Shown: positions 3,584 to 61,405 of the stretch, piece after piece
How positions within the stretch are numbered: the first letter of the stretch is position 1
Layout of the letters: each line of letters begins with the position of its first letter
Origin: Dehalococcoidia bacterium
Lineage (GTDB): Bacteria; Chloroflexota; Dehalococcoidia; Lucifugimonadales; UBA2962
Direction of reading: 5' to 3'
NCBI GenBank assembly: GCA_965207145.1
Contig: OZ242262.1
Location: forward strand, 1,864,827 to 1,928,826
DNA length: 64,000 nt
Notes under the pieces: generated by a model
What the model saw: only the letters and a program-made list of their open reading frames with translations
The model's database searches: none
Told to the model about the DNA's origin: nothing
Program-made: the position numbers and the translations under genes

Positions 3584-3805
3584 GCTACTGACGCTCTCAC
3601 CGTCATTCTATCGCCCCTCAGACTGATCCAACCGAGCGGTCCCGGTGCGGGGCCACCGGTACGTTGGATGCCGACTTTGGCGCCCCAGTTGGGCTCCTGC
3701 CGGCTACCCACGTCGAAGAGCAGGGTGCCGCCTACGGGTGAGTGTCCGTGGCGGCAGTCGGCCCCTGGCCCTGCCAGGTTTACCGCTTGAGTGGAGTTCG
3801 TTCCG

Positions 3806-7170: not shown

Positions 7171-9024
7171 GTGAAACGTTTAGCGGTCCTGTTTACGCTA
7201 GCTGGCCTCGTCGGGCTGGTCGCCGCCGCCTGCGCGGGCGAACCCGAGGTCGTGGTCGAGAAGGAGATCGTCGAGATCGAAAGGGTCGTCGAGGTCCCGG
7301 TCGAGACCGAGAAGGTGGTGGAGGTGGTCAGGGAGGTTGAGGTCCCGGTCGAAACCGAGGTTGAGAGGATCGTCGAGACCGAGGTTGAGAAGATCGTCGA
7401 GGTGGAGGTTGAAAAGGTCGTTGAGGTGGAGGTTGAAAAGGTCGTTGAGGTGGAGACCGAGAGGATCGTGATCAGCACGCCCACTCCACCCCCGCCCGGA
7501 GCCCCGCGCTTTGGAGGGACGCTGAGGGTGATCAGCCACGGAAGCGTCAGCAGCGTGGATCCGGTCTTCTCCCTGTTTGCCGTGGTCAACTACATCTCAA
7601 AGCAGTTCTATGAGCAGCTGTTTGCCTGGGATGGCGATCTGAACGCCCAGCCACAGCTCGTGGACACATGGTCCGTTAGCGATGATGGCCTGGAGTACAC
7701 CTTCACCTTACGCTCGTCCAATTTCCACGATGGGGACACATTCTCTGCTGCGGATGCCGTGGCCTCGATCAACAGGTGGCGCGATGCCGGGACGCCGGCG
7801 GCTGGCATCATTCGCAGGTTCACCGATGACGACGCCTTCGAGATCGTTGATAGGCAGACATTCAAGTGGAGTTTCAATGAGCCGCTTGGATCCACCATCT
7901 TCATACTCGGCATCCCGCACGGCGCCATGCCGATGATGAGGGAGGAGGATGCCGCCACCCCGTTTACGACCGCTGTCGAGGAGAGAATCGGCACGGGGCC
8001 ATACAGGTACGTGCGCTGGGATCAGGGCAACCGGGTAGTGGTGGAACGGTTCGATGAATACTCGCCACGGTCCGAGCCATTCCAGCCTGGCGGGTATATC
8101 GGACACACGGTTGCCTACATCGACAAGATAGAGTTCCTTGAGATCCCCGACGAAGAGACCAAGATGGCGGGGCTGGAGACCGGTGAGTGGGATGTCATCG
8201 AGTTCGCCGGGCTGGACTTTTTCAACCGGCTGAACGACAACCCCGACATCAACGTCACGACCTACGCGCCAGGCCTGAGATCAAACGTCTACCTCAACCC
8301 GCAGATTCCGCCGTTCAGCTATAAGCTGGCGCGACAGGCTCTGCAGACCGGTGTGCGGATAGAGGACTTCATGTTCGCCCTCGGGGACCCGCAGCTGTGG
8401 CAGGTGTGCGATGCCGTCTACTGGTGTGGCACCCCGCTTGAGACACACGTGGGATCGACCTTCGATGTGGAGTTGAGCGACGGTACCCATACCATCGGAT
8501 ACAACGTCTACGATGTCCCGACCGCCCAGCAGATGCTTGCCGAGTCGGACTACGCGGGTGAGACGACCATAATCCTGAACCCCACGGACCTGGCCGTCCT
8601 GACACCGCTTGGTCCGGTGCTCAAGCCGTTCATGGAGGAGATCGGCTTTAACGTGGAGATGCCGGCACTGGACTGGTCCACCATCACGAGCATGTTTGGC
8701 AATACGGACTCCTACAGCCTGGCCACCGACGCCTTCGAGCACTACTGCTGCGGCAGTCCCATACAGGATCACCTGATCTCCGGTACTCTGGACTTCATCA
8801 TCAGGGACTCCGACCTGATCAACCTGCAGCTTGAGTTCGCCCGCGAGACCGACCCGGCAAGGCGCGCCGAGATCATCGACGAGATCCAGGCCGCGCGCTG
8901 GGAGAAGGTGACCTCGCTGCTCCTGGGCCAGTTCTTCCCGATGCACCCCAGCAGCGTCGACCTGAGGAACTGGGAGGTCAAGGCGGTCCCGTACTACGCG
9001 GGCACCTGGCTGGAAAGGCGCTGA
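7171..9024 (+). CDS. ABC transporter substrate-binding lipoprotein, family 5 (peptide/nickel type) with E/V-rich repeat linker
   Basis: GTG start after GGAAGGGG. Signal plus lipobox AAACAG. Body has SBP_bac_5-like features (RFGGTLRV..., GTGPYRYVRWDQGNRVVVERFDEY). Confidence 0.85.
   Translation: MKRLAVLFTLAGLVGLVAAACAGEPEVVVEKEIVEIERVVEVPVETEKVVEVVREVEVPVETEVERIVETEVEKIVEVEVEKVVEVEVEKVVEVETERIVISTPTPPPPGAPRFGGTLRVISHGSVSSVDPVFSLFAVVNYISKQFYEQLFAWDGDLNAQPQLVDTWSVSDDGLEYTFTLRSSNFHDGDTFSAADAVASINRWRDAGTPAAGIIRRFTDDDAFEIVDRQTFKWSFNEPLGSTIFILGIPHGAMPMMREEDAATPFTTAVEERIGTGPYRYVRWDQGNRVVVERFDEYSPRSEPFQPGGYIGHTVAYIDKIEFLEIPDEETKMAGLETGEWDVIEFAGLDFFNRLNDNPDINVTTYAPGLRSNVYLNPQIPPFSYKLARQALQTGVRIEDFMFALGDPQLWQVCDAVYWCGTPLETHVGSTFDVELSDGTHTIGYNVYDVPTAQQMLAESDYAGETTIILNPTDLAVLTPLGPVLKPFMEEIGFNVEMPALDWSTITSMFGNTDSYSLATDAFEHYCCGSPIQDHLISGTLDFIIRDSDLINLQLEFARETDPARRAEIIDEIQAARWEKVTSLLLGQFFPMHPSSVDLRNWEVKAVPYYAGTWLERR
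7399..7446 (+). repeat. perfect 24-bp tandem duplication inside the E/V linker coding region
   Basis: GAGGTGGAGGTTGAAAAGGTCGTT occurs at 7399-7422 and again at 7423-7446. Diverged copies flank it. Confidence 0.9.
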
Positions 9025-15478: not shown

Positions 15479-15856
15479 ATGGCCGCCTACATCGAGAACG
15501 ACCCGGACCCGCTGTCGCCGGAGTCCCTGGCTCGGTTCGCCGTGGACGTGGCCTCGGACAAGCTGGCCTTTGATATCCAGATGCTGGATATCAGCCGGGT
15601 CAGCACCTTCGCCGATTTCTTCGTCATCGCAAGTGTCGATTCCGCGCGCCAGATGAACGCGCTCGTGGAGGACATCGAGATGGCCCTGGAGGCGACCGGA
15701 GCCGTTAGGCTGAGACGTGAGGGCAGCCCGGATAGCGGATGGGTCGTGATCGATTTTGGAGACCTGGTCGTCCACATCTTCGGCGTCGAGGAGCGTGAGT
15801 ACTACGCTCTTGCCGACGCCTGGCCGGGGGCGTCCGAAGTCGTCAGGATTCAATGA
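15479..15856 (+). CDS. rsfS: ribosome silencing factor RsfS (iojap family)
   Basis: FADFFVIASVDSARQ ... WVVIDFGDLVVHIFGVEEREYYALADAW. The start is taken at ATG 15479, 7 nt after a TATAAT. Confidence 0.85.
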   Translation: MAAYIENDPDPLSPESLARFAVDVASDKLAFDIQMLDISRVSTFADFFVIASVDSARQMNALVEDIEMALEATGAVRLRREGSPDSGWVVIDFGDLVVHIFGVEEREYYALADAWPGASEVVRIQ

Positions 15857-16325
15857 TCCAGCGGTCGATATCTCGCTCGTATTCGAACAGTTCGTCTTCT
15901 CCGAAAAACAGGTCGAGCTCCCTTGCGGCGGCCTGTTCGGAATCGGACCCGTGAATCAGATTCGGCCCGACCGTTAGCGCGAGGTCGCCCCTTATGGATC
16001 CCGGCGTCGCTTCTTTGGGGTTGGTGGCGCCCATCACGAGCCTCGTGATGTCGATCGCATCCGGGCCCGCAACAGCGAGCGCGATTATGGGACTTGACGT
16101 GATGAACTCCAGGAGGCTGGGGAAGAAGGGCCTATCAAGGTGGGCCTCGTAGTGGCGGCGTGCAAGCTCCTCGCTGACCAGAACCATTTTCGCCCCCACG
16201 ATCTTGAGGCCCTTGCGCTCGATTCGAGATATCACCTCGCCCGCCAGCCCCCGCTGAATCGCGTCGGGCTTGATCAACACCAGCGTTCGCTGCATCTGAG
16301 TATTTCCTTTTTCAGGGTCTGCCAA
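15843..16325 (-). CDS. ndk: nucleoside-diphosphate kinase
   Basis: QRTLVLIKPDA, NLIHGSDS (active-site His). The true start may be the internal ATG at 16295. Confidence 0.9.
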   Translation of the reverse strand: MADPEKGNTQMQRTLVLIKPDAIQRGLAGEVISRIERKGLKIVGAKMVLVSEELARRHYEAHLDRPFFPSLLEFITSSPIIALAVAGPDAIDITRLVMGATNPKEATPGSIRGDLALTVGPNLIHGSDSEQAAARELDLFFGEDELFEYERDIDRWIIES

Positions 16326-16328
16326 TGG

Positions 16329-17036
16329 TTACCCCAGGTGCGTCCTGGCCGCAACCGAATACTGAGCACTTCGCATGTAGAGTGGTTCAAGCGTGTCCGG
16401 GTGGTCCGTCTGCCCCGTCGCCAGTCTGGACCAGGCTAGTTGGGCGAGCGTGCCGGCCCGCCTCGTAGGAGGCTCATGGTCAGCCATCGTGGCCAGGTCC
16501 CCCAGTAGCTCCTTCAGCGTTGGAGCGCTCTCATGGGCCGCCTCACCGCAGAACATGGTCAACTCCTTTGTGCGCTCCGCCAGCTCCGGGACCGTGACCA
16601 CCGTTAGAGCCTCGGCTGGTCTATCGGACCAACCCGCATAGACGCGACCGCCACCGGCCTCTACGATGGCGCAAACCGGCACATCCGATGGCAGGTGGGG
16701 AGACAGCTCGATATCAAGAGTTCCTATACCCACCAGGGGCACCCCGAGCCCCATCGCTAGGGACTTGGCCATCGACATTCCGACCCTGAGCGAACTGAAT
16801 CCACCGGGGCCTTTAGCAACGAATACCGCCGACAGGTCCGACGGACCAGCCGAGGCCTGCCACATTATGCTTCTGATGGCCGGTGCCAGCTCTACCGAGT
16901 GATTTCGCTCCGCTCTCCACGTCCGTTCCTCGATGACTGTGCCCTGGTTGGAGACCGCGACCGAGGCGAAGCGGGTAGAAGAGTCTATGGAAAGTTCCAA
17001 CTTGCCCTCTAGCTTCCCGACACGCTGAGGCCTCAT
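16329..17036 (-). CDS. tsaB: tRNA t6A biosynthesis protein TsaB (YeaZ)
   Basis: LSIDSSTRFASVAV, KGPGGFSSLRVG. It has a 4-nt overlap with upstream tsaE. Confidence 0.85.
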   Translation of the reverse strand: MRPQRVGKLEGKLELSIDSSTRFASVAVSNQGTVIEERTWRAERNHSVELAPAIRSIMWQASAGPSDLSAVFVAKGPGGFSSLRVGMSMAKSLAMGLGVPLVGIGTLDIELSPHLPSDVPVCAIVEAGGGRVYAGWSDRPAEALTVVTVPELAERTKELTMFCGEAAHESAPTLKELLGDLATMADHEPPTRRAGTLAQLAWSRLATGQTDHPDTLEPLYMRSAQYSVAARTHLG

Positions 17037-17566
17037 TCAACCTGCGCGGCGAACGGCCGGGGATCGAGCACGCCCAATACGCCTTCGAGCAGGTCCATGT
17101 GCCTGCGGCCGGCCGCAGTCAATGTCAGCTTTCGTTCGTCTTCGCGGTCTTCGACCCTCTCGATGCGGATGTCTAGGCGGTCCGGAGGGAAGGCATGGGG
17201 CGCCCTGTCTGCCCATTCCACCAGGCAAAGGCCCTGACCTCGAACATATTCGTCCAGGCCGAGGGTGTCCAGGTCAGAGTCACGCTCGAGCCTATACAGG
17301 TCTACGTGGTACATAGGAATCCTGGCGGAGTGCTCCATGATCAGCACGAATGTCGGGCTACGCACATGGTCCCTTGAATCCAGCCCGCTCAGTGCCCCTT
17401 GTGCCAGGCGCGTCTTGCCCGCACCGAGCTCACCGGTTAGCAACACCAGGTCACCCGGGCGGGCGAGGCTGCCAATCGCGTGGCCGATCTGTTCTGTCCG
17501 GGCGGGTCGCTCCGACCGGAGCTCCCTCTTGGACAGGTGCGGTGGGTCAACTGTTTCTCGGTCCAT
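17033..17566 (-). CDS. tsaE: tRNA t6A biosynthesis ATPase TsaE (YjeE)
   Basis: Walker A GELGAGKT, SPTFVLIMEH, YHVDLYRL. Confidence 0.85.
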   Translation of the reverse strand: MDRETVDPPHLSKRELRSERPARTEQIGHAIGSLARPGDLVLLTGELGAGKTRLAQGALSGLDSRDHVRSPTFVLIMEHSARIPMYHVDLYRLERDSDLDTLGLDEYVRGQGLCLVEWADRAPHAFPPDRLDIRIERVEDREDERKLTLTAAGRRHMDLLEGVLGVLDPRPFAAQVE

Positions 17567-17746
17567 CGGCAGGTGCCGGTCGGTCAGTGAGATACGCGAA
17601 TGGCGCGTCTGGCCAGTGGCATGGGCGTGTATTATATTCGGGACCCGGCCAGCTCAGAAAGACGCTTCAACCGTGGCTTCTGCTCTGCCGCCAGAGGGGG
17701 AGGCTCCGGACCACGCCCCCTTCTCGATCCCTGCATCGGAGCCCAT

Positions 17747-18481
17747 TTGAGAGTTCTCATAGTCTCTGACGTACACGCCAATCTGGAAGCGCTTAGAGCC
17801 GTAATCGCAGACTGCGAGCGGAGAGGTGGATTCGACCAGATCTGGTCACTCGGCGATCTGATCGGTTACGGTCCCGACCCGGGACCCTGTGTAGACCTGA
17901 TACGCAGTCATGAAGCGATATCTGTGGCTGGCAACCACGATCTGGCCTCTATCGGCCGCCTGAGCCTAGAGGCGTTTAACGAGCATGCAGCCGCGGCCAA
18001 CCGCTGGACTTCTTCGCAGATAACCGCGGAACAAGCCGAATACCTAAGGGGATTGCCTCTCAGGGTTGAGCAGGGACTGTTCACGATGGTGCACGGGAGC
18101 CCCAGGGATCCAATCTGGGAATACGTTATTTCGGTCCCTGCTGCAGTCATCAGCTTTCTTCACTTCGACACGGGATGCTGTCTGGTCGGACACTCTCACG
18201 TGCCGTTCCTGTGTAGGCCGATGGCGGAGAAAGGGGCCGCCTTCGTAGAGTTCCCGCTTGACACTCCTATCGGCCTTGGCGGCGACCGGATGATCGTAAA
18301 TCCGGGAGGCGTGGGCCAGCCGCGGGACGGGGATCCGCGGGCTAGCTACGCCGTATACGACGAGCAGGGGGGCGTCATAGTCCATCACCGGGTGGAGTAC
18401 GACGTCCAGGCCACGCAGGCCAAGATGGAGGAGGAGGGCCTACCCCAATATCTGATCGACAGGCTGACCCATGGACGTTAG
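17747..18481 (+). CDS. metallophosphoesterase family protein (YfcE/MJ0936-like)
   Basis: LRVLIVSDVHANLEAL, GDLIGYGP, GNHD, GHSH. The proposed TTG start at 17747 is preceded by GGAG. The tracked ORF starts at 17600. Confidence 0.75.
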   Translation: MRVLIVSDVHANLEALRAVIADCERRGGFDQIWSLGDLIGYGPDPGPCVDLIRSHEAISVAGNHDLASIGRLSLEAFNEHAAAANRWTSSQITAEQAEYLRGLPLRVEQGLFTMVHGSPRDPIWEYVISVPAAVISFLHFDTGCCLVGHSHVPFLCRPMAEKGAAFVEFPLDTPIGLGGDRMIVNPGGVGQPRDGDPRASYAVYDEQGGVIVHHRVEYDVQATQAKMEEEGLPQYLIDRLTHGR

Positions 18482-18488
18482 GGATCGG

Positions 18489-19463
18489 CTAGTCCCTGTC
18501 GAGACTCTCGGGATCCGCCCCTGGCACCAACGTCGATGCGTGTGGGACACCTTTATCTAGCCCATCATTCGAGTGCAAATCGTAGTCATCGGCATCGCTC
18601 GCCGGACCTACCTGGGGTATTAGGGCGATCCTGTCGTCATGTGCGAGCCTGGGCTCAGGCAATTCCCGGATCGCATCGGACAGCTGTTTCAGACCTTCGG
18701 CATCGGTCGTCGGTAGGGCGAGGGCCGACACGCCGCTGCCTCTCATAGCCTCCAGATCTCCGGAGGACAGGATCCCGGGATGGAAGTCGCCTAGGACGAT
18801 TGCATGGGCGCCGGACGTAATGGCCCTGTGAAGCCTCAATATCGACTCGATGCTGAGAGGGATCGTATCGGCGTCGATCGCAATTGCCACGCCATCTATC
18901 GGCAGCGTCTGAACCGCTCGAGAGGTCTCATCGTCAATATCGGCTGCAACGGTCAGGAACTTTCCCAGATCCTCGTCGGTCAACACCGAGCCAGGGGTTC
19001 CGGCTGCGTCGAAGACCACAAAGTCCGCCCCTGCGGCCTTTAGTTGCTCGACCTTACCGCCCGGCAATGCTCCGGTGCGAACCCCCCACGGCAGACCGCT
19101 GAGAGCCGTTGAGGCTGACTGAAGCAGGTCCTCGGACAGATCTACCTCCTCCAGGAGCAAGGCGTCGACGGGGGCCCCGGATGCATCGAGCGCCGACAGT
19201 TGCTCGGGGTCAATCCGGCCCACCATGAGGATGTCAGGTACCTTGTCGGTGCGTCTTGCAGCCCGACCAAATCCCATGGGCTCGCTGTCTCGCCTGCCCG
19301 CCCTACCGAGCAGATCGGTGAATCTCGTCATCGTGCCTGCCAAACCTTTCGTATCCTCCGTTCGCTCCCTGCCGCCCCCGGCCATCAGGCGGCTTCGTCC
19401 CGGTGACCCGAGTGTATCGGTTGGTGTGGATTCTGGACCAGCCGGTCCTTCCAGAAACTGCAA
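18489..19463 (-). CDS. hypothetical protein
   Basis: 324-aa ORF with ordinary composition. No motif recognised. Start uncertain. Confidence 0.4.
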   Translation of the reverse strand: MQFLEGPAGPESTPTDTLGSPGRSRLMAGGGRERTEDTKGLAGTMTRFTDLLGRAGRRDSEPMGFGRAARRTDKVPDILMVGRIDPEQLSALDASGAPVDALLLEEVDLSEDLLQSASTALSGLPWGVRTGALPGGKVEQLKAAGADFVVFDAAGTPGSVLTDEDLGKFLTVAADIDDETSRAVQTLPIDGVAIAIDADTIPLSIESILRLHRAITSGAHAIVLGDFHPGILSSGDLEAMRGSGVSALALPTTDAEGLKQLSDAIRELPEPRLAHDDRIALIPQVGPASDADDYDLHSNDGLDKGVPHASTLVPGADPESLDRD

Positions 19464-19542
19464 GGAGGGCCCAAAGTTCGCTTGAACTGGCGGCTCGTAT
19501 TGCAGGACGATTCCCGGTGGACTGCAATCGAGGTCGAGGCAA

Positions 19543-20232
19543 GTGAAGTATATCCAGCACGAAGGCGACTACCTGAAGTTTGTCGCGGTCGAGCCCAACG
19601 GCTACGACCGGAGCGGCTCATATCCGATGATCGTACTCTTGCACGGCTTTGGGGCCCACATGGGCGATCTGGCTGGACTGGCCCCGGCGATTGACTCCCG
19701 GGGCTACGTCTACGTGTTTCCCAACGCCCCCATAGCTATGGATATGGGCATGAAGGGCGAGAACTACGCTTGGGCACCTCTTGGAGGCGACGGCACTGAT
19801 GAGGCGCTGGCTTATGCGGACAGGCTGATTGCCGGCTTCCTGGATGAGGTAGTGAGCATGTATGGACCGCCCGAGGGGCAGGTGGTGCTGGGCGGCTTCT
19901 CACAGGGAGGTATGATGGCCTACCGCAACGCGCTTTCGTACCCGGAGAGGTTCGCGGGGATCGCCGCCCTGAGCTCCATGCTCGGCAGTGGGCGTGATAT
20001 CGAGGGAGTGATGCCTGCCACCAGAGACCAGGCCATATTCGCCTCGCATGGTACTGCCGACACGATGATCCCTGTCGCGGTAGCCCGCAAGAACATCGAA
20101 TTCCTACGATCTCATGGCTACGTCCCTGACTACCGGGAATACTCCATGGCACACGAAGTGTCGCTGCAGGTTGTCTCCGACCTGACGGTCTGGCTCCACA
20201 AAGTCGTCGACCCCTTCATCCCGGCCTCCTAG
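19543..20232 (+). CDS. phospholipase/carboxylesterase-family alpha/beta hydrolase
   Basis: VLLHGFGA and nucleophile elbow GGFSQGG. Confidence 0.8.
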   Translation: MKYIQHEGDYLKFVAVEPNGYDRSGSYPMIVLLHGFGAHMGDLAGLAPAIDSRGYVYVFPNAPIAMDMGMKGENYAWAPLGGDGTDEALAYADRLIAGFLDEVVSMYGPPEGQVVLGGFSQGGMMAYRNALSYPERFAGIAALSSMLGSGRDIEGVMPATRDQAIFASHGTADTMIPVAVARKNIEFLRSHGYVPDYREYSMAHEVSLQVVSDLTVWLHKVVDPFIPAS

Positions 20233-20329
20233 CACCAGAAAGTCCCACCAGGCTCGAAGGGCGGTTCCGCTTGGAAGCGGCCTTGTCGGGGCCGCCGTCT
20301 CCACGTACCATCTGCGCCGGGGAGTAGAC

Positions 20330-21064
20330 TTGGCCAGACGCAACGCGATCCTGGAGAGGGCGGAGAGGGGCGAGAGGTCGCTCGGATGCTGGCTGACCTT
20401 TCCTTCGGTACAGGTGGTCGAACTAATCGCGCTCGCTGGCTTTCACTTCATTCAGATCGACGGTGAGCATGGTCCATTCGCGCCGCAGGACGTCGAGAGC
20501 ACCTGCCTGGCGGCGCAGGCGGTCGGTCTGACGGTCACTGCCAGAATTCCGAGTCTGGACGCCGGCACTGTCAATTCCTACCTTGACAGGGGCATACAGG
20601 GCATCATGGGCCCCCACGTGGAGAGCTCCCTAGAGGCCGCTGCACTGGTCTCCGCCTGTCGATTTGCGCCGGAGGGAGAGCGCAGCTGGGGTGGTGGAAG
20701 GGCCCTGCATTTCAATGATCCGGGCTCCGTGCAGGACGATGACGGAAGTCGGGCTGACGTAATGGCTCGCGCCAACGCCGAGATGATCGTAACGGCCCAA
20801 TTGGAGTCCAAGGCCGCTCTTGATGCCATCGATGATCTGCTCGCCGTTCCCGGGATCGACTACTTCGCGTTCGGCCCAAACGACCTGGCCCAGTCGATGG
20901 GTCTTCCAGGCCGCCCCGAAGACCCTGCTGTCAAGGCTGCCATGGCGCAGACAGTGCAGCGGGTCCACGCCGCCGGCCGCAAGATGACCACGGATGACAT
21001 GTCGATGACGTACGTCCAGAGCCTGCTGCTTGATGCGGGCCGCGCGTTCGTCGAATCCAACTGA
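20330..21064 (+). CDS. HpcH/HpaI-family aldolase
   Basis: GCWLTFPSVQVVELIALAGFHFIQIDGEHGPF is typical of class II 2-keto-3-deoxy-acid aldolases. Confidence 0.8.
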   Translation: MARRNAILERAERGERSLGCWLTFPSVQVVELIALAGFHFIQIDGEHGPFAPQDVESTCLAAQAVGLTVTARIPSLDAGTVNSYLDRGIQGIMGPHVESSLEAAALVSACRFAPEGERSWGGGRALHFNDPGSVQDDDGSRADVMARANAEMIVTAQLESKAALDAIDDLLAVPGIDYFAFGPNDLAQSMGLPGRPEDPAVKAAMAQTVQRVHAAGRKMTTDDMSMTYVQSLLLDAGRAFVESN

Positions 21065-21077
21065 AGGAGTCCCATCA

Positions 21078-22124
21078 ATGCGAACTATGAGGGCGGCCCT
21101 TTACCAAGGTTCCAGGAAGCTCCTGGTGCAGGACGTGCCGGTCCCCGACGTTGGACCCGGCGAAGTGCTCGCTCGCGTGCGAGCCGAAGGGGTCTGCGGC
21201 TCGGACCTGCTCATCTGGTGGGACAAAACCGAGCCGGATCAGATACCGGCCGGCCATGAGGTGGCCGGTGAGATTGTCGAGGTCGGCGAGGGAGTCGATC
21301 CGGCCCGGGTGGGGGAGAGGGTCGCCATAGACATCCTGGGATTCGGCGTCAACTGCAGTTCTTGCTTCTACTGTCGGCAGGGCCAGCCCATCCAGTGCCT
21401 CGATAAGAAACCCGATACGGGCGGAGGCTATGCACAGTACATCAAGCGCAACGCCGCCGGCTGCTTCCCAATCCGCGAGAGGATGACTTGGGAGGAGGCG
21501 GCTCTGGTTGAGCCTCTTGCCGTCTCGGTGCACGGCTGTCGCCGCGGCAGACTTGAGGGCGGAGAGACGGTGCTGGTCTTGGGTGCGGGCAACATCGGCC
21601 AGACCGCGGTCGCAGCGGCACGGGCGATGGGCGCAGGCAGGGTACTGGTCACCGCCAGGCACGCCCACCAGGGCGAGTTGGCAAAATCCCTGGGTGCAGA
21701 CGTCATTCTTCCGGACCACGGCGATGAGCTTGCCGAGGCCGTCGCCGACGAAACCGCCGGCCGCGGTGCCGACCTGACGCTGGAATCGGTCGGTGGCCGG
21801 ACGGATGCAACGATCCAGCAGTCGATTCAATTCACGCGGCCACAGGGGCGCATCGTCATATTGGGGGGCTTCTGGGTGCCGATAGAGATCGACTGGATGA
21901 AGCCTCTCTTCAAGGAACAGTCGGTGATTTTCTCGTCCTGTTACTCGGTGCTCGACGGTCGGGACGACTTCGAGGTAGCAATCGACATGATGGGGTCGGG
22001 CAGGGTGGACCTGAAACCGATGGTGACACACAAGTATGCCTTGGAGGACATCCAGGAGGCCATCGACACCGCCTTTGACAAGTCCACCGGCTCCATAAAG
22101 GTCCAGATCCACCAACAGGGTTAG
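21078..22124 (+). CDS. zinc-dependent alcohol/polyol dehydrogenase (MDR family)
   Basis: GAAGGAG RBS before ATG 21078. GVCGSDL, GHEVAGEIVEVG, structural-Zn Cys cluster CSSCFYCRQGQPIQC, and GAGNIG Rossmann motif. Confidence 0.85.
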   Translation: MRTMRAALYQGSRKLLVQDVPVPDVGPGEVLARVRAEGVCGSDLLIWWDKTEPDQIPAGHEVAGEIVEVGEGVDPARVGERVAIDILGFGVNCSSCFYCRQGQPIQCLDKKPDTGGGYAQYIKRNAAGCFPIRERMTWEEAALVEPLAVSVHGCRRGRLEGGETVLVLGAGNIGQTAVAAARAMGAGRVLVTARHAHQGELAKSLGADVILPDHGDELAEAVADETAGRGADLTLESVGGRTDATIQQSIQFTRPQGRIVILGGFWVPIEIDWMKPLFKEQSVIFSSCYSVLDGRDDFEVAIDMMGSGRVDLKPMVTHKYALEDIQEAIDTAFDKSTGSIKVQIHQQG

Positions 22125-22215
22125 GATCTCCCCTCCACGCTCACCGTGGTGGGAGGAACCGGCCGGATTCGGAGAACGGGAATCGAGAGAGTACGGGTCT
22201 AGGGAGATTGACCAG

Positions 22216-23262
22216 ATGGCTGCGAAGATGAAGGCGGCGCTATGGAATGGGAAAGGCGCGATGGAGTTGGCGGAGGTCGACCGGCCTCCGGTAGAGCCCG
22301 ACGGGGCCCTCGTGCTCGTAAGGGCGGAGGGCATCTGCGGTTCGGACCTCCTGCTCTATGCGGCCAAGACCGATCGGGAGACGCAACCTGCAGGCCACGA
22401 GATAGCCGGCGAGATCGTCGAGGTCGGCGAGAGCGTTGATCCGGCCCGCATAGGAGAGCGTGTGGCCATCGAGGGAATAGGTGTTGGGCGTGCTTGCCAT
22501 ACATGCTTCTATTGCAGGGAGGGCCAGTATTTCCTCTGCGAGAACCTTTCGCCCGACACGGGCGGCGGATACGCTGAATTCGTCTCGCGCAAGGCTGCCG
22601 GCCTCTACGAATTGGCCGAGAGCATGACCTGGGAGGAGGGAGCACTTGTCGAGCCTTTCGCGGTCGGACTGCACGCCATGCGACGCGGCGAGCTGAGCGG
22701 CGGTGAGACGGTGGCTGTGCTGGGCTCGGGGACCATCGGCCTGTGCACCACCGCGGCCGCGCGCGCCATGGGCGCCGGCACAATAGTTGCGACCGCCCGT
22801 TACCCTCAGCAGGCTGAGATGGCCAGGCGCGTGGGAGCCGACATAGTCGTAGGCTCAGACGGCAGTGAGCTCAAGGAAGCGCTTGGCGAAATCACTGGCG
22901 GGCTTGGAGCCGACCTGACAGTTGAGACCGTCGGTGGGCGCACCGACGTGGCCTTGAACCAGTCTGTTGACGTCACCCGCATGCAAGGCCGGGTCGTTAC
23001 GACCGGGAACTTCTATGGCCCGATGAGAATCGACTGGATGGAGGCCCTCCTCAAAGAGATATCTATCATCTGGTCGGCCATCTACGCGACCAGCCGTGGC
23101 CGAAATGAGTTTGACATCGCCATAGAAATGATGGGATCAGAAAGGGTGGATCTACGGCCGTTGGTGACCCACAGGGTCTCTCTTACAAACATTCAGGCCG
23201 GATTCGACACGGCCGTTGATAAGAGCAGCGGCGCCATAAAGGTCCAGGTTCACACGGTCTAG
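22216..23262 (+). CDS. zinc-dependent alcohol/polyol dehydrogenase (tandem paralogue)
   Basis: GICGSDL, GHEIAGEIVEVG, CHTCFYCREGQYFLC, GSGTIG. Confidence 0.85.
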   Translation: MAAKMKAALWNGKGAMELAEVDRPPVEPDGALVLVRAEGICGSDLLLYAAKTDRETQPAGHEIAGEIVEVGESVDPARIGERVAIEGIGVGRACHTCFYCREGQYFLCENLSPDTGGGYAEFVSRKAAGLYELAESMTWEEGALVEPFAVGLHAMRRGELSGGETVAVLGSGTIGLCTTAAARAMGAGTIVATARYPQQAEMARRVGADIVVGSDGSELKEALGEITGGLGADLTVETVGGRTDVALNQSVDVTRMQGRVVTTGNFYGPMRIDWMEALLKEISIIWSAIYATSRGRNEFDIAIEMMGSERVDLRPLVTHRVSLTNIQAGFDTAVDKSSGAIKVQVHTV

Positions 23263-55462: not shown

Positions 55463-55726
55463 CAGTCTAGCAGAGCAGATCAGAGAGACACGCTGAGGCC
55501 TTAAGCTACATTCGCAGTCGATTGAGCCTCATGTGCCGCAAACACTCGGCACAATAGTCGACAGGCAATTCACCAATCGCGAGCTTCGCATCTACCCGGG
55601 TCGACTGGACTCCTGCCCAGACCTACGCGGACGGTCGCACATCGTTAGCCGTTTGCGGGCCAGTTGAGGCCTTCTGCCTCGCCCAAGGCATGGGGAGGTA
55701 GCCTCAAAAGGTGTGTAAACGATCAG

Positions 55727-55788
55727 GCGGTGTAACCTCTCTCTGATCACAGACGGGCTTTTTATGCCCGAGAGAGGAGTACACCGCC
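55727..55788 (+). promoter_or_regulatory. stem-loop sequestering the transposase RBS
   Basis: GGCGGTGTAACCTCTCTC (55727-55744) pairs with GAGAGAGGAGTACACCGCC (55770-55788), which contains the GAGGAG SD. There is an inner CGGGC/GCCCG stem. Confidence 0.4.
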
Positions 55789-55789
55789 C

Positions 55790-57034
55790 ATGGTCAAGGA
55801 GAGCATTGAAACAGGACCTGAGTCAAGGCCGGGATTCGAGCACCTGGAGGACTGGTTGCGAGGTCAGATGCAGGGTCTGATCCAGGACATGCTGGAGGAG
55901 GAGGTCACCGAGTTCCTGGGCAGGGCCAGGTCGGTGCGCCGGTCGGGATCCGATAGGGACTCTGGGTACCGAAACGGTCACGGAAGCCCCCGGAGGCTGA
56001 CGCTGAGCTCGGGGACGATCCAGGTGAGGCGGCCGAGGGTACGTGATACCGAGGAGCGGTTCGAGAGCAGGCTTCTTCCCCTGTTCGCCAACAGGAGCCG
56101 GCAGGTCGACGTCCTGCTTCCGGAACTGTACCTGCACGGTCTGTCGGAGGGGGACTTCGACCTGGCGCTGCGAGGTCTGCTGGGCGAGGCCGCTCCGATA
56201 TCGGCCAGCACGATCGCGCGTCTGAAGGACAGGTGGAACGCAGAGCTCGCCGAGTGGCGGGGAAGGTCCCTTTCCGAGCTAGAGGTAGTCTACATGTGGG
56301 TGGACGGGGTGTACGTGAAGGCGGGCCTGGAGCGTGAGAAGGCCGCGATCCTGGTGGTTGTGGCGGCGCTGAGCGACGGGAGCAAGGTGGTCCTGAGCGC
56401 GGTGCCCGGGTACCGGGAGTCCACACGGAGCTGGTCGGATGTGCTCAGGGACCTGAGGGACCGCGGTCTCAGCTGCCCGCGGCTGGTGGTCGGAGACGGT
56501 CATCTGGGGATCTGGGGGGCGCTTGGCAACGTGTACCCGGAGGCGGGAGAGCAGCGCTGCTGGAACCACAAGATCCTCAACGTGCTCGACAAGCTTCCCA
56601 AACGTCAGCATGACCAGGCAAAGCTGATGCTGCGCAGCATGCCGTACGCTCCCACCCGGGCCGAGGCAGAGCGGCTCAGGCGGGTCTTCACGCGGTGGTG
56701 CGGCGAGCACTCCTACGAAGCAGCCCGTGAGGCTATCGAGCGTGACTGGGACAGGATGGTGGCCTTCTACGACTACCCCAAACAGCACTGGCGTCACCTG
56801 AGAACGACCAACCCGGTCGAGTCGCCCTTCGCTGCGCTGCGCATCCGGACGGATGCGGCCAGGCGCTATAAGAAGGTGGACCGGGCGATCGCAGTCATAT
56901 GGAAGATGCTGATGGTGGCCGAGAACAGGTTCCGGCGCCTGCAGGCGCCGGAGCTGATGGCTGACGTCTACCTCGGTGCCAGGTACAAGGACGGGGTCGC
57001 CATCGAGCAACAGGAAGAGAGGATCGCCGCCTGA
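55790..57034 (+). CDS. IS256-family (Mutator-type) transposase
   Basis: YMWVDGVYVKAG ... VVGDGHLGIWGAL ... QRCWNHKILNVLDKLPK signature (DDE with the CWxHK motif). Confidence 0.9.
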   Translation: MVKESIETGPESRPGFEHLEDWLRGQMQGLIQDMLEEEVTEFLGRARSVRRSGSDRDSGYRNGHGSPRRLTLSSGTIQVRRPRVRDTEERFESRLLPLFANRSRQVDVLLPELYLHGLSEGDFDLALRGLLGEAAPISASTIARLKDRWNAELAEWRGRSLSELEVVYMWVDGVYVKAGLEREKAAILVVVAALSDGSKVVLSAVPGYRESTRSWSDVLRDLRDRGLSCPRLVVGDGHLGIWGALGNVYPEAGEQRCWNHKILNVLDKLPKRQHDQAKLMLRSMPYAPTRAEAERLRRVFTRWCGEHSYEAAREAIERDWDRMVAFYDYPKQHWRHLRTTNPVESPFAALRIRTDAARRYKKVDRAIAVIWKMLMVAENRFRRLQAPELMADVYLGARYKDGVAIEQQEERIAA

Positions 57035-57803
57035 TCGCTTTTACACACCCTTTGACGCAACCTCCCGGGCGGTGGAGTAACTACAGTGCATTGCGAACTG
57101 TTCGGCGTGCGGCGGCAGGATAGAATTCCGGTTAAATTACCCCTGCCGTCTGAGCCTACTCCCTTCCAACTTCCTTGGCAGCAGGTAAGATCAACCGGTT
57201 GTGTCGCAGTTTGAGCCACGCGTAGGGCGGCACCGCAGGCGAACGGTTCCCTGAGAGAGTCTCAGTCTGAGAGTGGAGTCAGTTTAGCCTCGGCTACCGC
57301 AGTTGACGTACAGGACGGCCGATCCGAAGGCGGACGCGGCAAGGATCGGTGTCATCCACTTAGCAAACTCGATGATGGTCCGAGAGTTATGTCCTCTAGG
57401 AGGTCCTCCTGCCACTGTTCACCTTGCAGCTTGGACATTCAGGGGGCGTTGTTCTTCGATGTGCCTGATGTGTTTTTTTCAAGGCATTCCGCAGGCGGAC
57501 TGCACCGTCATACGAAAAGAGGTGACAGTTCTCTTCAATTTGCAACTCCAGGCTCGCAAGGCCATCAGGCCAGTCCTCGACCTACACCACTATGTGAGCC
57601 AAGTTAGGCTTCCTCTTCCTTCCAAACCTCGCAAGGTTTCCTATGTCTAGGCCATTTCACTTCGGGCCTTCCTACGATCCGGTTCCGCCGCTTTCCGTAA
57701 CCGGATTGCAGCACTTACCCGAGTCCGGCGTCGGATACCCGAAGGCGAAGGGCGAGGGCGACGGGGTCAAGGTACCGTAGAGCCGACGAGAGGAGTCGTG
57801 AAT

Positions 57804-58745
57804 ATGCCTATCTGGTCCTTCAGCGATCTTGGAGAGCTGTTTTCAAACCAGTCGATTGGCCTCTGGGAGCGTTTGAGCTACGTCAGGGAGTCCATCAAGA
57901 GCCGCGGCGTCCTTGGGCCGGTGAGGTTCGGGGAGGAGACGATCACTGACCTGCTGATGATGGACCTCTACGTCCAGGGGTCGACGCTGGCCCTCTTCCA
58001 GCAGACCTCCAAGCCCGAGGAGGCCATGTGGGGGACCGACTTCGAGCTGTGGCTGGGGTCGGACCCGCTTGGGTGGTTTCGATTCGCCATCCAGGCCAAG
58101 AAGCTCGACCTGAGGAGCGGCAGGTACGCTTCCCTCACGCAGAGCAACGTCAACGGAAAGCAGATTGACCTCCTCGAACGATACGCCGGGCGCAAGCGTG
58201 CCGCGCCGCTGTACTGCCTCTACAACCACACCGACGATGCGAACGAGCTGAACCACTGGCATTGCTGCACCGGCCCCGCCAACCTGAAGGACCTCGGGTG
58301 CTCCGTCACCCCGTCGTCGAACATCCGCAAGGCCATCGGCCAGTGGAAGGGCAAGAACTTCAAGAGCATTCACCAGAGGAAGAACACGCTGCCCTGGAAG
58401 TGCCTGGTCTCCTGCCCATCGGTGTGGTACCTGCTCCAGGTCAAGTCGGGGAAGGGCACCGGGAGCCCTATAATCCGGGAGACGCCCCTGTTTGATGCCG
58501 ACTCCTGTTACCACGATACATTGCCTCTGGCGCTTCGGATGCAGGATCAGCCAGCCGTCGTACGGCGAAGCGAGCGTGGGGGTTCGCTGATATCGATACC
58601 GCTGGATGCGGAGAGGGACATCGATCAGGCTGCCGACGCGTTCGGGCGGGAGGTCCGTCGCGACTTCAGGGAATGGTATGACCCGGAAACCGGATCGCCC
58701 AAAGCGGCTGCCGTCATAGAAGTGCAAGGTCCTGCTCTGAGATGA
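57804..58745 (+). CDS. hypothetical protein with PD-(D/E)xK-like nuclease-fold motifs
   Basis: AGGAG lies 8 nt before ATG 57804. Pattern: EETITDLLMMDL helix, GTDFELWLG strand, RFAIQAKKL strand (E...D-x-E...QxK). The opposite-strand 294-aa ORF is R/P/G/L-rich shadow. Confidence 0.55.
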   Translation: MPIWSFSDLGELFSNQSIGLWERLSYVRESIKSRGVLGPVRFGEETITDLLMMDLYVQGSTLALFQQTSKPEEAMWGTDFELWLGSDPLGWFRFAIQAKKLDLRSGRYASLTQSNVNGKQIDLLERYAGRKRAAPLYCLYNHTDDANELNHWHCCTGPANLKDLGCSVTPSSNIRKAIGQWKGKNFKSIHQRKNTLPWKCLVSCPSVWYLLQVKSGKGTGSPIIRETPLFDADSCYHDTLPLALRMQDQPAVVRRSERGGSLISIPLDAERDIDQAADAFGREVRRDFREWYDPETGSPKAAAVIEVQGPALR

Positions 58746-58817
58746 CTATTGCGGCCTGTAGTAACCCGCTAGAAACGTTTACCCGTTTCCAACCTCACGC
58801 GTTGGGGAAGAAAAGAA

Positions 58818-59663
58818 ATGTCGATCCCTGAATCGACGCTCTCCAGATGGAGCCACCATCGGGCTGCGACGGCCTTCACGCAGGCGCACCTTCCCATCCG
58901 GGCCGCCTTGGACAACTACAGTTGGCCCTCGGACATCACGTACGAGGTTTTCCTTCAGGGCTCCTACAAGAACGACACGAACCTCGGCGGGGACAGTGAT
59001 GTCGACGTGGTGGTGCGGTTGAACCATCGGCTCAGGCCGCGAGTGGCCGAGCTCACGGGCCGGCAGTTGCGGGGTGACGCTTCCCGCCAAGGGGCATACC
59101 AGCGGTGGAAGTCCTTCAGGGACCATGCGCTCAAGGCGATGAGAGCTAGGTTCGGGAATGCCGCCAAGAGCGGCCGGAAGACCGTGAAGGTGCCGAAAGG
59201 CAAGATCCCGGCGGACGCCGACCTCGTCGTCACGCTGCGCTACAGGGAAGGCATAGCGTTCTACCTACCGGATGAAGGACGCTGGGTCTTCAGCTTTCCG
59301 CAGCAGCACCACGCTCAGGGTCAGAAGAAGGAAGAGGCAACCAACCGGCGGTTCAAGCGGACCATCCGTATGTTCAAAGCGGCACGGAACCGGCTGGTCG
59401 AGACGGAGGCGCTCACCAAAAGTGATGTCCCCTCCTACTTCATCGAATGCCTGCTCTACAACGTCCCCGACGACCTGTTCAAACCGAAGCTGGTGCCGAG
59501 GTATACGGTCATCGTCGATTGGCTGAAGACAGCGAGGCTCGGTGATCTCAAATGCCAGAACGGCCAAGTGGAACTGTTCGGCTCGGGCAAGGAGCAGTGG
59601 TCCGTGAAGAAGGCGCGGGCGTTCGTCAGGGCGTTGGAGAAGCTGTGGGAGGCGGGGGCATGA
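58818..59663 (+). CDS. nucleotidyltransferase, CD-NTase/SMODS-like (Pol-beta fold with helical C-domain)
   Basis: LQGSYKNDTNLGGDSDVDVVVRL (GS...DxD) at 58959-59006. A later ADADLVVTL carries the third acidic residue. C-terminal region FKRTIRMFKAARN...PSYFIECLLYNVP is typical of cGAS/DncV-like enzymes. Confidence 0.65.
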   Translation: MSIPESTLSRWSHHRAATAFTQAHLPIRAALDNYSWPSDITYEVFLQGSYKNDTNLGGDSDVDVVVRLNHRLRPRVAELTGRQLRGDASRQGAYQRWKSFRDHALKAMRARFGNAAKSGRKTVKVPKGKIPADADLVVTLRYREGIAFYLPDEGRWVFSFPQQHHAQGQKKEEATNRRFKRTIRMFKAARNRLVETEALTKSDVPSYFIECLLYNVPDDLFKPKLVPRYTVIVDWLKTARLGDLKCQNGQVELFGSGKEQWSVKKARAFVRALEKLWEAGA

Positions 59664-59875
59664 AGGATGGCCATCCGCCCACAATCAGGTATCCCGCGGG
59701 ACAAAGTTAAGGATAGTCGTGCCCGTCCAGATTCTCACGGGCCAAGAGCTGTCCCTGAGAGCATGGGAATCTCGGTTGTCAGCAGGTGACCGATCCCTAG
59801 GCACGAAGGTCAGACCACCTCCCTACGGAAGAGCCCTCGATAGTCGCTGGGAGATTTGGCGACGGCCGGGGTCAG

Positions 59876-59905
59876 TTGATCGTAAGAAAAGGGAGATTCT
59901 ATACT
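59876..59905 (+). promoter_or_regulatory. sigma70-like promoter for the HTH/DruA-like/large-ORF operon
   Basis: TTGATC (59876-59881), 18-nt spacer, TATACT (59900-59905). It lies about 45 nt upstream of ATG 59950. Confidence 0.4.
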
Positions 59906-59949
59906 TTCGCCGACTTTCATGGCCATTGATATGTAAGGGCGGTACTGAC

Positions 59950-60171
59950 ATGAGTCTCACGGAGAGCTGGGTGAACATTGCGGAAGTGGCAGCGCACCTA
60001 CAAGTTACGAAGGATTCGATATATCGCTGGGTCGATTCGAAGGGTTTTCCGGCTCACCGCGCCGGGCGACTATTGAGATTCAAGCTATCAGAAGTAGACA
60101 CATGGGTGCGGTCAGGTAGTGATGAGCACACTCCTTTAGAGGGTCATAACAGAAGCGCAGATGACAACTAA
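59950..60171 (+). CDS. small excisionase/MerR-type HTH DNA-binding protein (HTH_17-like)
   Basis: VNIAEVAAHLQVTKDSIYRWVDSKGFPAHRAGRLLRFKLSEVDTWV. The start is taken at the internal ATG 59950. It overlaps the next gene by 11 nt. Confidence 0.75.
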   Translation: MSLTESWVNIAEVAAHLQVTKDSIYRWVDSKGFPAHRAGRLLRFKLSEVDTWVRSGSDEHTPLEGHNRSADDN

Positions 60172-61405
60172 ATCAACTGGCCCGGATTCGGCCGTATTTC
60201 AGGAGGGGCATCTCTCGGCGGGAGCCAATGGTTCTTCGCTGTCTAGTGACCGCGCTGACGGAGCGTCCTTGAAGAGCGCAATACACGAGCACCTGTTGAA
60301 TCTAGGCTTCTCTCGGAATGGCAGTGGCTATTTCGTCGATGGAGTTTTGACGAAGCAGAAGATCCGGAATCTTCATGCCGCCCAACGGGTCGACATCCTG
60401 GAGCGGCATAGGAGCTTTGTTGAAACGCATGGCACCGAATTGGCGAGGCATTTTGCGAGCGGTAGTCAGGTTGACACCGGGTCGATTAGTCCAAGGCTAG
60501 TCCCGGTTCTTCCGGGCTCCCTTGAGTCTCGATTGTTCAGATTTGCTTCGCTGCTGTGGTCTGTGCCAGTGTCGCAGGGCTTTGGGCGTCGACTGCGTTT
60601 CCTCGTCAAGGACAGACAGAACGATTGTTTGATCGGCCTCTTCGCTCTGGGAGACCCCGTCTTCAATCTTTCCGCTCGGGACAATTGGATCGGCTGGACA
60701 CACGAGGACCGCCGGGATCGACTCGTCCATGTAATGGATGCCTATGTTGTTGGCGCCGTTCCTCCATACTCTCAATTGATTGGTGGGAAACTCGTGGCCG
60801 CACTCATGGGTAGCAAGGAGGTGCGACGAGCCTACGAACGGAAGTACCTGGCCCGGCAATCAGTGATTCGCCAGAGGACACATCGGGCGCGTCTGGTGCT
60901 TTTGACGACAACATCGGCTCTGGGTCGTTCATCGATCTACAACCGTCTGACCATACCGGACGGTCCTCGCTTCCTCAGGATTGGTACGACCAAGGGTTTC
61001 GGTCACTTTCATCTTTACGGCGAAGTGTTCGATTCGCTCAGGGATCATCTGGAGGAGACTGGGCACCCCTATGCTTCCGGCCACAGGTTCGGCATGGGGC
61101 CAAACTGGAAGCTGCGCGTCGCAAGAGCCGCACTTGAGGACATTGGCATTGACGGAAACTCAGTCTTGAAGCACGGCATCGAGCGTGAAGTGTACGCCAT
61201 CCCACTGGCTGAGAATTGGAAGAAGGTCATATCGGGTGAGCATCAGAGAGTCCGCTCCCTTGCCAAGCCGGCCGCCGAAATCTCGAAGTACTGCTTGGAC
61301 CGTTGGATCGTGCCTCGATCGGAGCGGGACACGAGTTTTCGTAGCTTTGACAAGGACATCATCATACCTACTTTGTTGAACGGAGGCCCTGGGGCAACGT
61401 GGTAA
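60161..61405 (+). CDS. DruA-like protein (DUF4338-like core)
   Basis: GRRLRFLVKDRQNDCLIGLFALGDPVFNLSARDNWIGWTHEDRRDRL (60584-60697) resembles, from memory, the DUF4338 signature (RLRYLV...RDxWIGW) of Druantia DruA. Size is 414 aa. Confidence 0.55.
   Translation: MTTKSTGPDSAVFQEGHLSAGANGSSLSSDRADGASLKSAIHEHLLNLGFSRNGSGYFVDGVLTKQKIRNLHAAQRVDILERHRSFVETHGTELARHFASGSQVDTGSISPRLVPVLPGSLESRLFRFASLLWSVPVSQGFGRRLRFLVKDRQNDCLIGLFALGDPVFNLSARDNWIGWTHEDRRDRLVHVMDAYVVGAVPPYSQLIGGKLVAALMGSKEVRRAYERKYLARQSVIRQRTHRARLVLLTTTSALGRSSIYNRLTIPDGPRFLRIGTTKGFGHFHLYGEVFDSLRDHLEETGHPYASGHRFGMGPNWKLRVARAALEDIGIDGNSVLKHGIEREVYAIPLAENWKKVISGEHQRVRSLAKPAAEISKYCLDRWIVPRSERDTSFRSFDKDIIIPTLLNGGPGATW

Follow-up and report, generated by a model that had tools for sequence, protein, structure and literature searches.

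Do two adjacent genes, one for a signalling nucleotidyltransferase and the other for a nuclease-like protein of an unstudied family, form a small anti-phage system, or have two defence genes come to lie side by side independently? The question is raised by gene 1 and gene 2, located near the end of a 64,000-nucleotide (nt) stretch of Dehalococcoidia DNA that is called the window hereafter. Gene 1 encodes a DUF6615 protein and gene 2 a cGAS/DncV-like nucleotidyltransferase (CD-NTase) of clade E (CdnE). A first interpretation made without database searches (the sequence-only reading) had described them as two genes of the same strand lying 72 nt apart and as a possible minimal signalling module; their coordinates and the exact gap were confirmed. 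We give about even chances to the pair being a type I module resembling the cyclic oligonucleotide-based anti-phage signalling systems (CBASS), in which DUF6615 is a new nuclease effector of the NucC style. The pair has an operon-like arrangement, being co-directional and devoid of accessory genes, and the effector role of gene 1 is putative and unproven. Coupling is favoured because a cyclase requires an effector and no other nearby gene qualifies. Furthermore, chance is hard to credit since DUF6615 is rare, yet repeatedly adjoins CdnE in both gene orders.

Gene 2 aligns end to end with the CdnE of Rhodothermus marinus (RmCdnE, PDB 6E0K; E 1e-67, 47% identity over 272 aligned residues), and this alignment takes in the C-terminal helical domain of CD-NTases. 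Its five best PDB matches are all CdnE enzymes: RmCdnE, EmCdnE, EfCdnE, ClCdnE and 7x4f, the latter being labeled "cyclic dipyrimidine nucleotide synthase". Its best PADLOC model is the CBASS cyclase PDLC00788, matched over its full length (E 3e-78), and 28 cyclase models match in all. The precomputed Pfam annotation is PF26305 (CD_NTase_C), and more than 3,000 homologues were found at E<=1e-20. The catalytic residues G48-S49, D61, D63 and D135 are invariant across all aligned relatives, and PSYFIECLLYN is present at residue 205. These data bear out the earlier identification of a GS...DVD motif (G48-S49, D61-V-D63, with D135) and of a cGAS/DncV-like enzyme. Judged by its sequence, gene 2 is a genuine clade-E CD-NTase with an intact active site. 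In NCBIfam, the best model is the DS-2 cyclase NF053871 (DefensePredictor), but the score of gene 2, 211.9 bits, falls short of its 350-bit equivalog cutoff. The CBASS named DS-2 comprises, besides a cGAS-like enzyme, a phospholipase and a diadenylate cyclase (PMC13092281); neither of these two partners is encoded at the window locus.

The lid of the active site bears on the nature of the signal. In RmCdnE, the uracil of the acceptor nucleotide is recognised by N166 of lid-1; the N166S substitution turns the product from cUA to mainly cAA (PMC10442399). The residue of gene 2 that aligns with N166 is Ser159, the Asn of uracil-specific CdnE enzymes (makers of cUA or cUU) not being present. With Ser in place of the uracil-reading Asn, the predicted product of gene 2 is a purine-containing cyclic dinucleotide (c-di-AMP- or cGAMP-like) rather than cUMP-AMP. 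The same residue separates two groups of relatives. All CdnE proteins of the collected loci that are 52-100% identical to that of the window carry Ser at lid-1, and none of them is accompanied by Cap15. Among those that are 38-47% identical, 57 out of 59 carry Asn, and Cap15 (Pfam Cap15_CD_rec and Cap15_TM) is encoded a few bases downstream of CdnE in 53 loci. Since Cap15 senses uracil-containing dinucleotides (review PMC10419184), signal and receptor both seem to have changed in the clade of the window, the Asn-to-Ser lid switch coinciding with the loss of Cap15.

Gene 1 matches a single family, Pfam DUF6615 (PF20320), at 42.5 bits (cutoff 23.8) and over residues 41-144 only. It has no match in PADLOC (v2) or NCBIfam, and RefSeq labels its plasmid homologues "DUF6615 family protein". 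We found 213 homologues in a database clustered at 90% identity, and an exhaustive search of representatives gave 2,429 clusters at 50% identity. An AlphaFold2 (AF2) model built from a 44-sequence alignment (predicted local distance difference test score, pLDDT, 86.8) places the core at about residues 36-145. The core consists of a helix (44-57), three strands (61-66, 80-86 and 90-100), a second helix (120-131) and a last strand (134-140), that is, in the alpha-beta-beta-beta-alpha-beta order of the PD-(D/E)xK topology. In this model, the first helix carries E44, D79 marks the start of the second strand and the third strand includes Q97-x-K99. E44, E73, D79, Q97 and K99 are invariant both in the 44 homologues and in 92 distant representatives of the family (27-44% identical to the query); G77 and Q120 are also invariant in the latter. 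E81 never varies in the 44 homologues and is kept by at least 90% of the 92 representatives. Hence the E...D-x-E...Q-x-K pattern announced by the sequence-only reading is found as E44, E73, D79-x-E81 and Q97-x-K99. The middle residue of the putative catalytic motif is Gln97 instead of Asp or Glu, and E81 or E73 might substitute for it.

The restriction-endonuclease-like fold that had been proposed together with this pattern agrees with the predicted order of elements and with structural comparison. The model of residues 1-146 (pLDDT 73) matches human Rep15 (PDB 8a4b) in Foldseek at E 1e-4, followed by sub-threshold matches to SwaI, CinB, TnsA and EcoRV; Rep15 has been described as Hjc-like (PMC9308819). 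The full-length model gave nothing significant in the PDB or in the viral BFVD, the top match being the Hjc resolvase (E 0.9), and in sequence searches neither the single protein nor the 44-sequence profile matched any PDB chain. From the model, it is reasonably supported that the core of gene 1 adopts a restriction-endonuclease fold and that its product is a putative nuclease. After the core, C154, H190, C200 and C204 form, together with C138, C155 and C166, a Cys/His cluster; the conservation of the first four (at least 90%) suggests a metal site. The last ~60 amino acids form a tail found mainly in closer, mostly Dehalococcoidia, relatives.

Pfam, PADLOC and Foldseek detected no SAVED, STING or TIR domain, no Cap15 beta-barrel and no NucC pocket in gene 1, and hydropathy indicates no transmembrane segment (top 19-residue value 1.14), as had been read from the sequence for SAVED, STING, TIR and transmembrane regions. 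DUF6615 proteins are mostly 250-300 amino acids long, and 90 of the 92 representatives match DUF6615 alone with no fused sensor. A nuclease effector lacking a sensor domain had been called unusual; this view was abandoned because NucC is exactly such an effector (review PMC10419184), so that the architecture is less unusual than first thought. Our literature search found no mention of DUF6615, no experimental test of it and no account of a DUF6615-CdnE pair in Dehalococcoidia.

Under the CBASS-like reading, infection would activate the clade-E cyclase, which would then make its cyclic dinucleotide, probably a purine-based one. The DUF6615 protein encoded upstream would be the effector, a latent nuclease that combines a Hjc/Rep15-like PD-(D/E)xK core with the Cys/His cluster. 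As the protein lacks a dedicated sensor domain, the dinucleotide would bind to it directly, probably where the subunits of an oligomer meet, as in NucC. NucC is a nuclease that itself senses its signal, cA3 (review PMC10419184); by analogy, DUF6615 would be activated directly by the dinucleotide. The activated protein would cut DNA and the infection would be aborted.

The pair recurs in other genomes; loci of other genomes and plasmids are designated below by L-numbers. The closest relatives all come from metagenome-assembled genomes of Dehalococcoidia. DUF6615 lies at most 75 nt from CdnE in 11 loci, and in two further loci the pair is split by an insertion. Nine of the paired loci belong to clade A: the window, L006, L008, L009, L011, L012, L015 and L123, all with a spacer of 72-74 nt, plus L122, where a fragment of an insertion sequence (IS) separates the two genes (3113-4001). 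DNA homology within clade A forms a single block that extends from ~80 nt 5' of gene 1 through the last codon of CdnE. The other arrangements are those of L125, which encodes a 284-amino-acid DUF6615 protein (28-33% identical) with a gap of 62 nt; of L025, in which the gene order is reversed and the gap is 54 nt; and of L029 (8819-13717), in which a Mokosh-like helicase gene is inserted between DUF6615 and a frameshifted cyclase. Across these four arrangements, the DUF6615 proteins are 25-40% identical and the cyclases 62-88%. This recurrence in four arrangements makes a functional pair likely, though not proven.

The clade-A DUF6615 genes that have lost the cyclase also look less well preserved. 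None of the ten that adjoin CdnE is altered at any of the conserved sites checked. Within the GTDB scan, lesions affect 7 of the 11 clade-A genes that have no intact adjacent cyclase vs none of the six paired genes (Fisher p 0.035 when Cys changes are included, 0.24 when only clear knock-outs are counted). L019 carries D79Y and L022 a frameshift, L028 and L037 hold fragments, and Cys residues are substituted in L016-L018.

Elsewhere, the pair was found in several states of decay. In addition to L122 and L029, these include L007 (8943-9160), where the cyclase is deleted after ~140 nt and DUF6615 is intact, and L011 (9017-9862), where the cyclase carries an in-frame stop. Moreover, L122 (4886-6244) and L123 (3250-4608) encode, 40 nt after CdnE, a 452-amino-acid protein with no match in Pfam or PADLOC. 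This protein may serve as a third component or as an alternative effector, and the window has no such gene after CdnE.

Table 1. Features of the gene 1-gene 2 locus, in window coordinates
Feature	Coordinates	Strand	Location	Description
Region 5' of gene 1	57719-57803	+		Conserved; putative promoter/5' untranslated region, GAGGAG 7-12 nt before the start codon
Gene 1	57804-58745	+		ATG to TGA, 313 amino acids, DUF6615; proposed effector
Gene 1/gene 2 spacer	58746-58817	+		72 nt; conserved AAGGA-type ribosome-binding site 5' of gene 2
Gene 2	58818-59663	+		ATG to TGA, 281 amino acids, clade-E CD-NTase (CdnE)
IS256/Mutator-type transposase	55790-57034		Upstream of gene 1	Pfam E 6e-57
HTH_17/MAD1-like open reading frame	59719-60171		Downstream of gene 2, immediately 5' of DruA	Listed as 150 amino acids
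DruA	60161-61405		Downstream	PADLOC E 1e-139
Open reading frame after DruA	61405 to window end			865+ amino acids; no PADLOC match

The features of the locus are listed in Table 1. An alternative in-frame GTG at 57798 would lengthen gene 1 by two amino acids. DNA homology to L007, L009, L015 and L037 starts at 57719-57725; no consensus promoter was found 5' of gene 1 in a sigma-70 scan, the promoter/terminator scan being uninformative. In the spacer, the terminator scan predicted no terminator on the + strand. The spacer contains a hairpin (GAAACG...CGTTTC, 58770-58795) that is also present in the four closest relatives; as a conserved RNA structure, it was unsupported across eight sequences (RNAalifold).

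The sequence-only reading had placed the pair directly after an IS256 element and directly before a Druantia-like operon. The IS256/Mutator element is indeed present and complete (55693-57066), with 27-nt terminal inverted repeats (55693-55719 and 57040-57066) that are 89% complementary. Since 737 nt separate its end from gene 1, it is near but not directly adjacent; this interval shows no coding similarity to the neighbor genes of related loci. DruA is also present downstream, with the HTH_17/MAD1-like gene lying in between, and the operon is atypical since the open reading frame that follows DruA has no PADLOC match. As homologues of the HTH_17/MAD1-like protein have only 73-75 amino acids, the real start of this gene is probably an ATG near 59947. 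In L038, L122 and L123, the same HTH gene stands at the head of MADS-like or methylase systems. Pfam and PADLOC detected no Cap2, Cap3 or HORMA/TRIP13 accessory genes at the locus. Furthermore, no other effector candidate flanks the cyclase, the flanks being the IS256 element, the helix-turn-helix (HTH) gene and DruA.

Among the alternatives, the one that survives best, and that we consider quite possible, is that the two genes are independent neighbors in a defence-island hotspot, which in Dehalococcoidia lies downstream of a block of histidine-kinase/response-regulator and epimerase genes. DUF6615 would then provide defence by itself, as a single-gene nuclease, or together with other neighbors. 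CdnE would be an orphan, would be decaying or would signal to an effector encoded elsewhere, and the adjacency would result from shared descent and from repeated loading of a small hotspot.

Several results support such independence and weigh against a coupled pair. The DUF6615 superfamily is large and nearly all its members are single-domain proteins. About three quarters of the DUF6615 contexts examined have no cyclase within 3 kb: CdnE is absent from 23 of the 32 GTDB loci that carry DUF6615, from three plasmid contexts and from L130, and a hidden Markov model (HMM) of 99 CdnEs revealed no divergent cyclase hidden near other DUF6615 loci. These cyclase-less genes still keep their catalytic residues, and they sit in defence islands beside restriction-modification (R-M), Lamassu-like, Zorya, Kiwa and Thoeris genes. 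For instance, DUF6615 lies beside ZorE and ahead of an LmuB-like SMC ATPase gene, in the position of LmuA, in L033 (7950-12839), and 6 nt after HsdM in L026 (7962-8642). On a Vibrio gigantis plasmid (L128; NZ_CP092386, record positions 8083-8913), it overlaps the hsdR stop codon at the end of a Type I R-M operon (hsdM-hsdS-hsdR). Its other neighbors include KwaA (L017), a Type II methyltransferase (L031), the PDC candidate PDC-S31 (L034) and ThsB-TIR genes (L130). The unpaired DUF6615 genes of L002 and L130 share no partner, the ~170-amino-acid open reading frames upstream of them being unrelated. On the side of coupling, in contrast, count the positions of DUF6615 in L033, in L026 and on the Vibrio plasmid, where it behaves as a plug-in effector; the overall pattern fits a modular picture in which one nuclease module shares operons with different partners, namely CdnE, LmuB-like SMC proteins or subunits of Type I R-M.

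Other points of the same bearing come from the comparison of the two families. Co-occurrence of their homologues holds in part: starting from DUF6615, CdnE is directly adjacent in 7 of the 32 GTDB loci and present as a degraded copy in 2 more; starting from the cyclase, DUF6615 was found in none of 80 metagenomic CdnE loci. The co-phylogeny is weak and not significant (Mantel r 0.36, p 0.08). No residue appeared convincingly specific to cyclase-linked DUF6615 proteins, and Foldseek and profile searches detected no cyclic-nucleotide-binding fold in gene 1. Lastly, many clade-A pairs share ancestry, and the recurrence therefore amounts to about four independent events, not thirteen.

The neighbors of close CdnEs are also in line with independence. 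Homologues that are 72-84% identical to the window's CdnE adjoin DUF4238 (L038), an unrelated 282-amino-acid protein (L039) or DUF5677 (L124), and in L126, CdnE lies 48 nt after a housekeeping-type epimerase gene with no effector candidate. Seven close CdnE proteins were chosen irrespective of DUF6615. Two of them have DUF6615 upstream (L122/L123 and L125), three have DUF4238, the 282-amino-acid protein and DUF5677, respectively, and one has nothing; for the seventh (L040/L041), the upstream gene was lost at the contig end. In L038, DUF4238 occupies the very position of DUF6615, immediately 5' of an 84%-identical CdnE, and a DUF4238 protein (Rst_DUF4238, Rousset 2022) was demonstrated to defend alone in E. 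coli (PMC9122126). Profile comparison showed no relationship between DUF6615 and DUF4238, the L039 protein or DUF5677, so these upstream genes do not represent a single hidden family. In the comparison with L038 and L039, DNA homology sets in precisely at the start codon of CdnE; with such breakpoints at the boundaries of the CdnE reading frame, recombination respects the gene boundary. In the modular picture, the Ser-lid CdnE clade behaves like a cyclase that often exchanges its partner.

However, if the genes were independent, the window and no fewer than 12 other loci would each hold an intact, conserved cyclase that lacks an effector. The same rare family would also have to land beside CdnE about four times and in both gene orders. 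Clade-A DUF6615 genes that lack a cyclase also carry more lesions than paired ones, which speaks against independence.

An inverted, guard-type logic, as in Panoptes-like systems, appears improbable. In this case, a constitutive signal would silence DUF6615, and a phage sponge or nuclease that removes the signal would free the nuclease. Guard systems derived from nucleotide cyclases do exist, Panoptes-like systems being described in a preprint. Since most genomes evidently have a working DUF6615 and no cyclase, the role of the cyclase in the pairs may be to modulate DUF6615 and not to enable it, and the presence of DUF6615 in Type I R-M operons would resemble that of PrrC-type guards. However, no direct evidence supports a guard. 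To our knowledge, the characterised CdnE enzymes are infection-activated CBASS cyclases. Moreover, loss of the cyclase should be toxic under this logic, yet L007 has an intact DUF6615 gene beside a deleted cyclase. Finally, there is hardly any chance that gene 2 is a non-signalling nucleotidyltransferase (MNT antitoxin or aminoglycoside nucleotidyltransferase) within a toxin-antitoxin-like pair, since its weak and generic Pfam match to NTP_transf_2 (residues 41-72, E 5e-5) is outweighed by the full-length RmCdnE alignment (E 1e-67), by PF26305 and by the 28 PADLOC cyclase matches, the HMM classification and the PDB matches identifying a CBASS cyclase and excluding the other two identities.

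If the coupling of DUF6615 and CdnE is real, a cyclic dinucleotide would be sensed by a restriction-endonuclease-like protein of an unstudied family. This would add a new receptor and effector fold to CBASS, though as a variant of CBASS and not as a new type of system. More broadly, and with a likelihood that we put somewhat short of even, DUF6615 might be a new class of latent suicide nuclease that is activated by a purine cyclic dinucleotide without any SAVED, STING or Cap15-type receptor, serves as a plug-in effector for CdnE, LmuB-like SMC proteins and Type I R-M, and shares ancestry with vertebrate REP15. A CdnE predicted to be purine-specific, together with a testable target, would allow the matching of signals and receptors in clade E to be examined. 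If the neighbors are independent, the locus is an ordinary defence-island hotspot with an orphan cyclase. In either case, DUF6615 is a large family, consistently located in defence islands, that is absent from PADLOC v2 and matched no NCBIfam model, and therefore a candidate defence gene or effector module.

Among known systems, the type I CBASS CdnE-Cap15 of R. marinus is related to the window pair by its cyclase, which belongs to the same clade (47% identity to RmCdnE). The two also share a two-gene logic without Cap2, Cap3 or HORMA and a defence-island setting. They differ by the partner, which is a downstream Cap15 with two transmembrane segments and a beta-barrel in CdnE-Cap15 and an upstream, soluble, nuclease-like DUF6615 in the window, and by lid-1, which carries Asn in the former and Ser, with a predicted purine signal, in the latter. 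Furthermore, RmCdnE-type cassettes are nested in methyltransferase/restriction operons, unlike the window pair. Such nesting of Asn-lid CdnE-Cap15 cassettes in a Type III-like R-M operon was observed in L065 (1129-8239), in L064, L072, L081 and L090, and on the R. marinus plasmid NC_015970 (L131, record positions 15684-22819). The genes succeed one another in the order N6/N4 methyltransferase (~900-960 amino acids), CdnE, Cap15 and BPTD_3080-family restriction helicase, and in ~20 loci the end of the methyltransferase gene and the start of CdnE share 13 nt. This looks like a fixed four-gene arrangement of a CBASS within an R-M system.

The Rst_DUF4238-type single-gene defence resembles DUF6615 by its place upstream of CdnE in L038 and because most DUF6615 genes also stand alone, the two proteins being unrelated. 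Cap4/LmuA (DUF4297) offers another parallel: this PD-(D/E)xK-type module is found by CD-NTases and before SMC-like LmuB, as DUF6615 is in L033. However, Cap4 belongs to another Pfam family and carries a SAVED sensor, whereas DUF6615 is nearly always a single domain. As for the fold, Hjc and Rep15 are the nearest to gene 1, and two of the 92 DUF6615 representatives match Pfam Rab15_effector (~1e-4). No nuclease role is known for Rep15, a Rab effector of eukaryotes, whereas DUF6615 keeps the invariant E/D/QxK residues and has an additional Cys/His region on its C-terminal side; the bacterial DUF6615 nuclease-like family may be the origin of vertebrate REP15. The comparison with NucC concerns the mode of action. 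No similarity between NucC and gene 1 was found in phmmer, profile or Foldseek PDB searches, DUF6615 differs by its Cys/His cluster, and the signal of NucC is cA3 made by clade C/D cyclases, whereas the window pair is expected to use a dinucleotide. Nevertheless, NucC and, by prediction, gene 1 are restriction-endonuclease-fold proteins of 240-310 amino acids in which a nuclease effector would dispense with a separate sensor domain.

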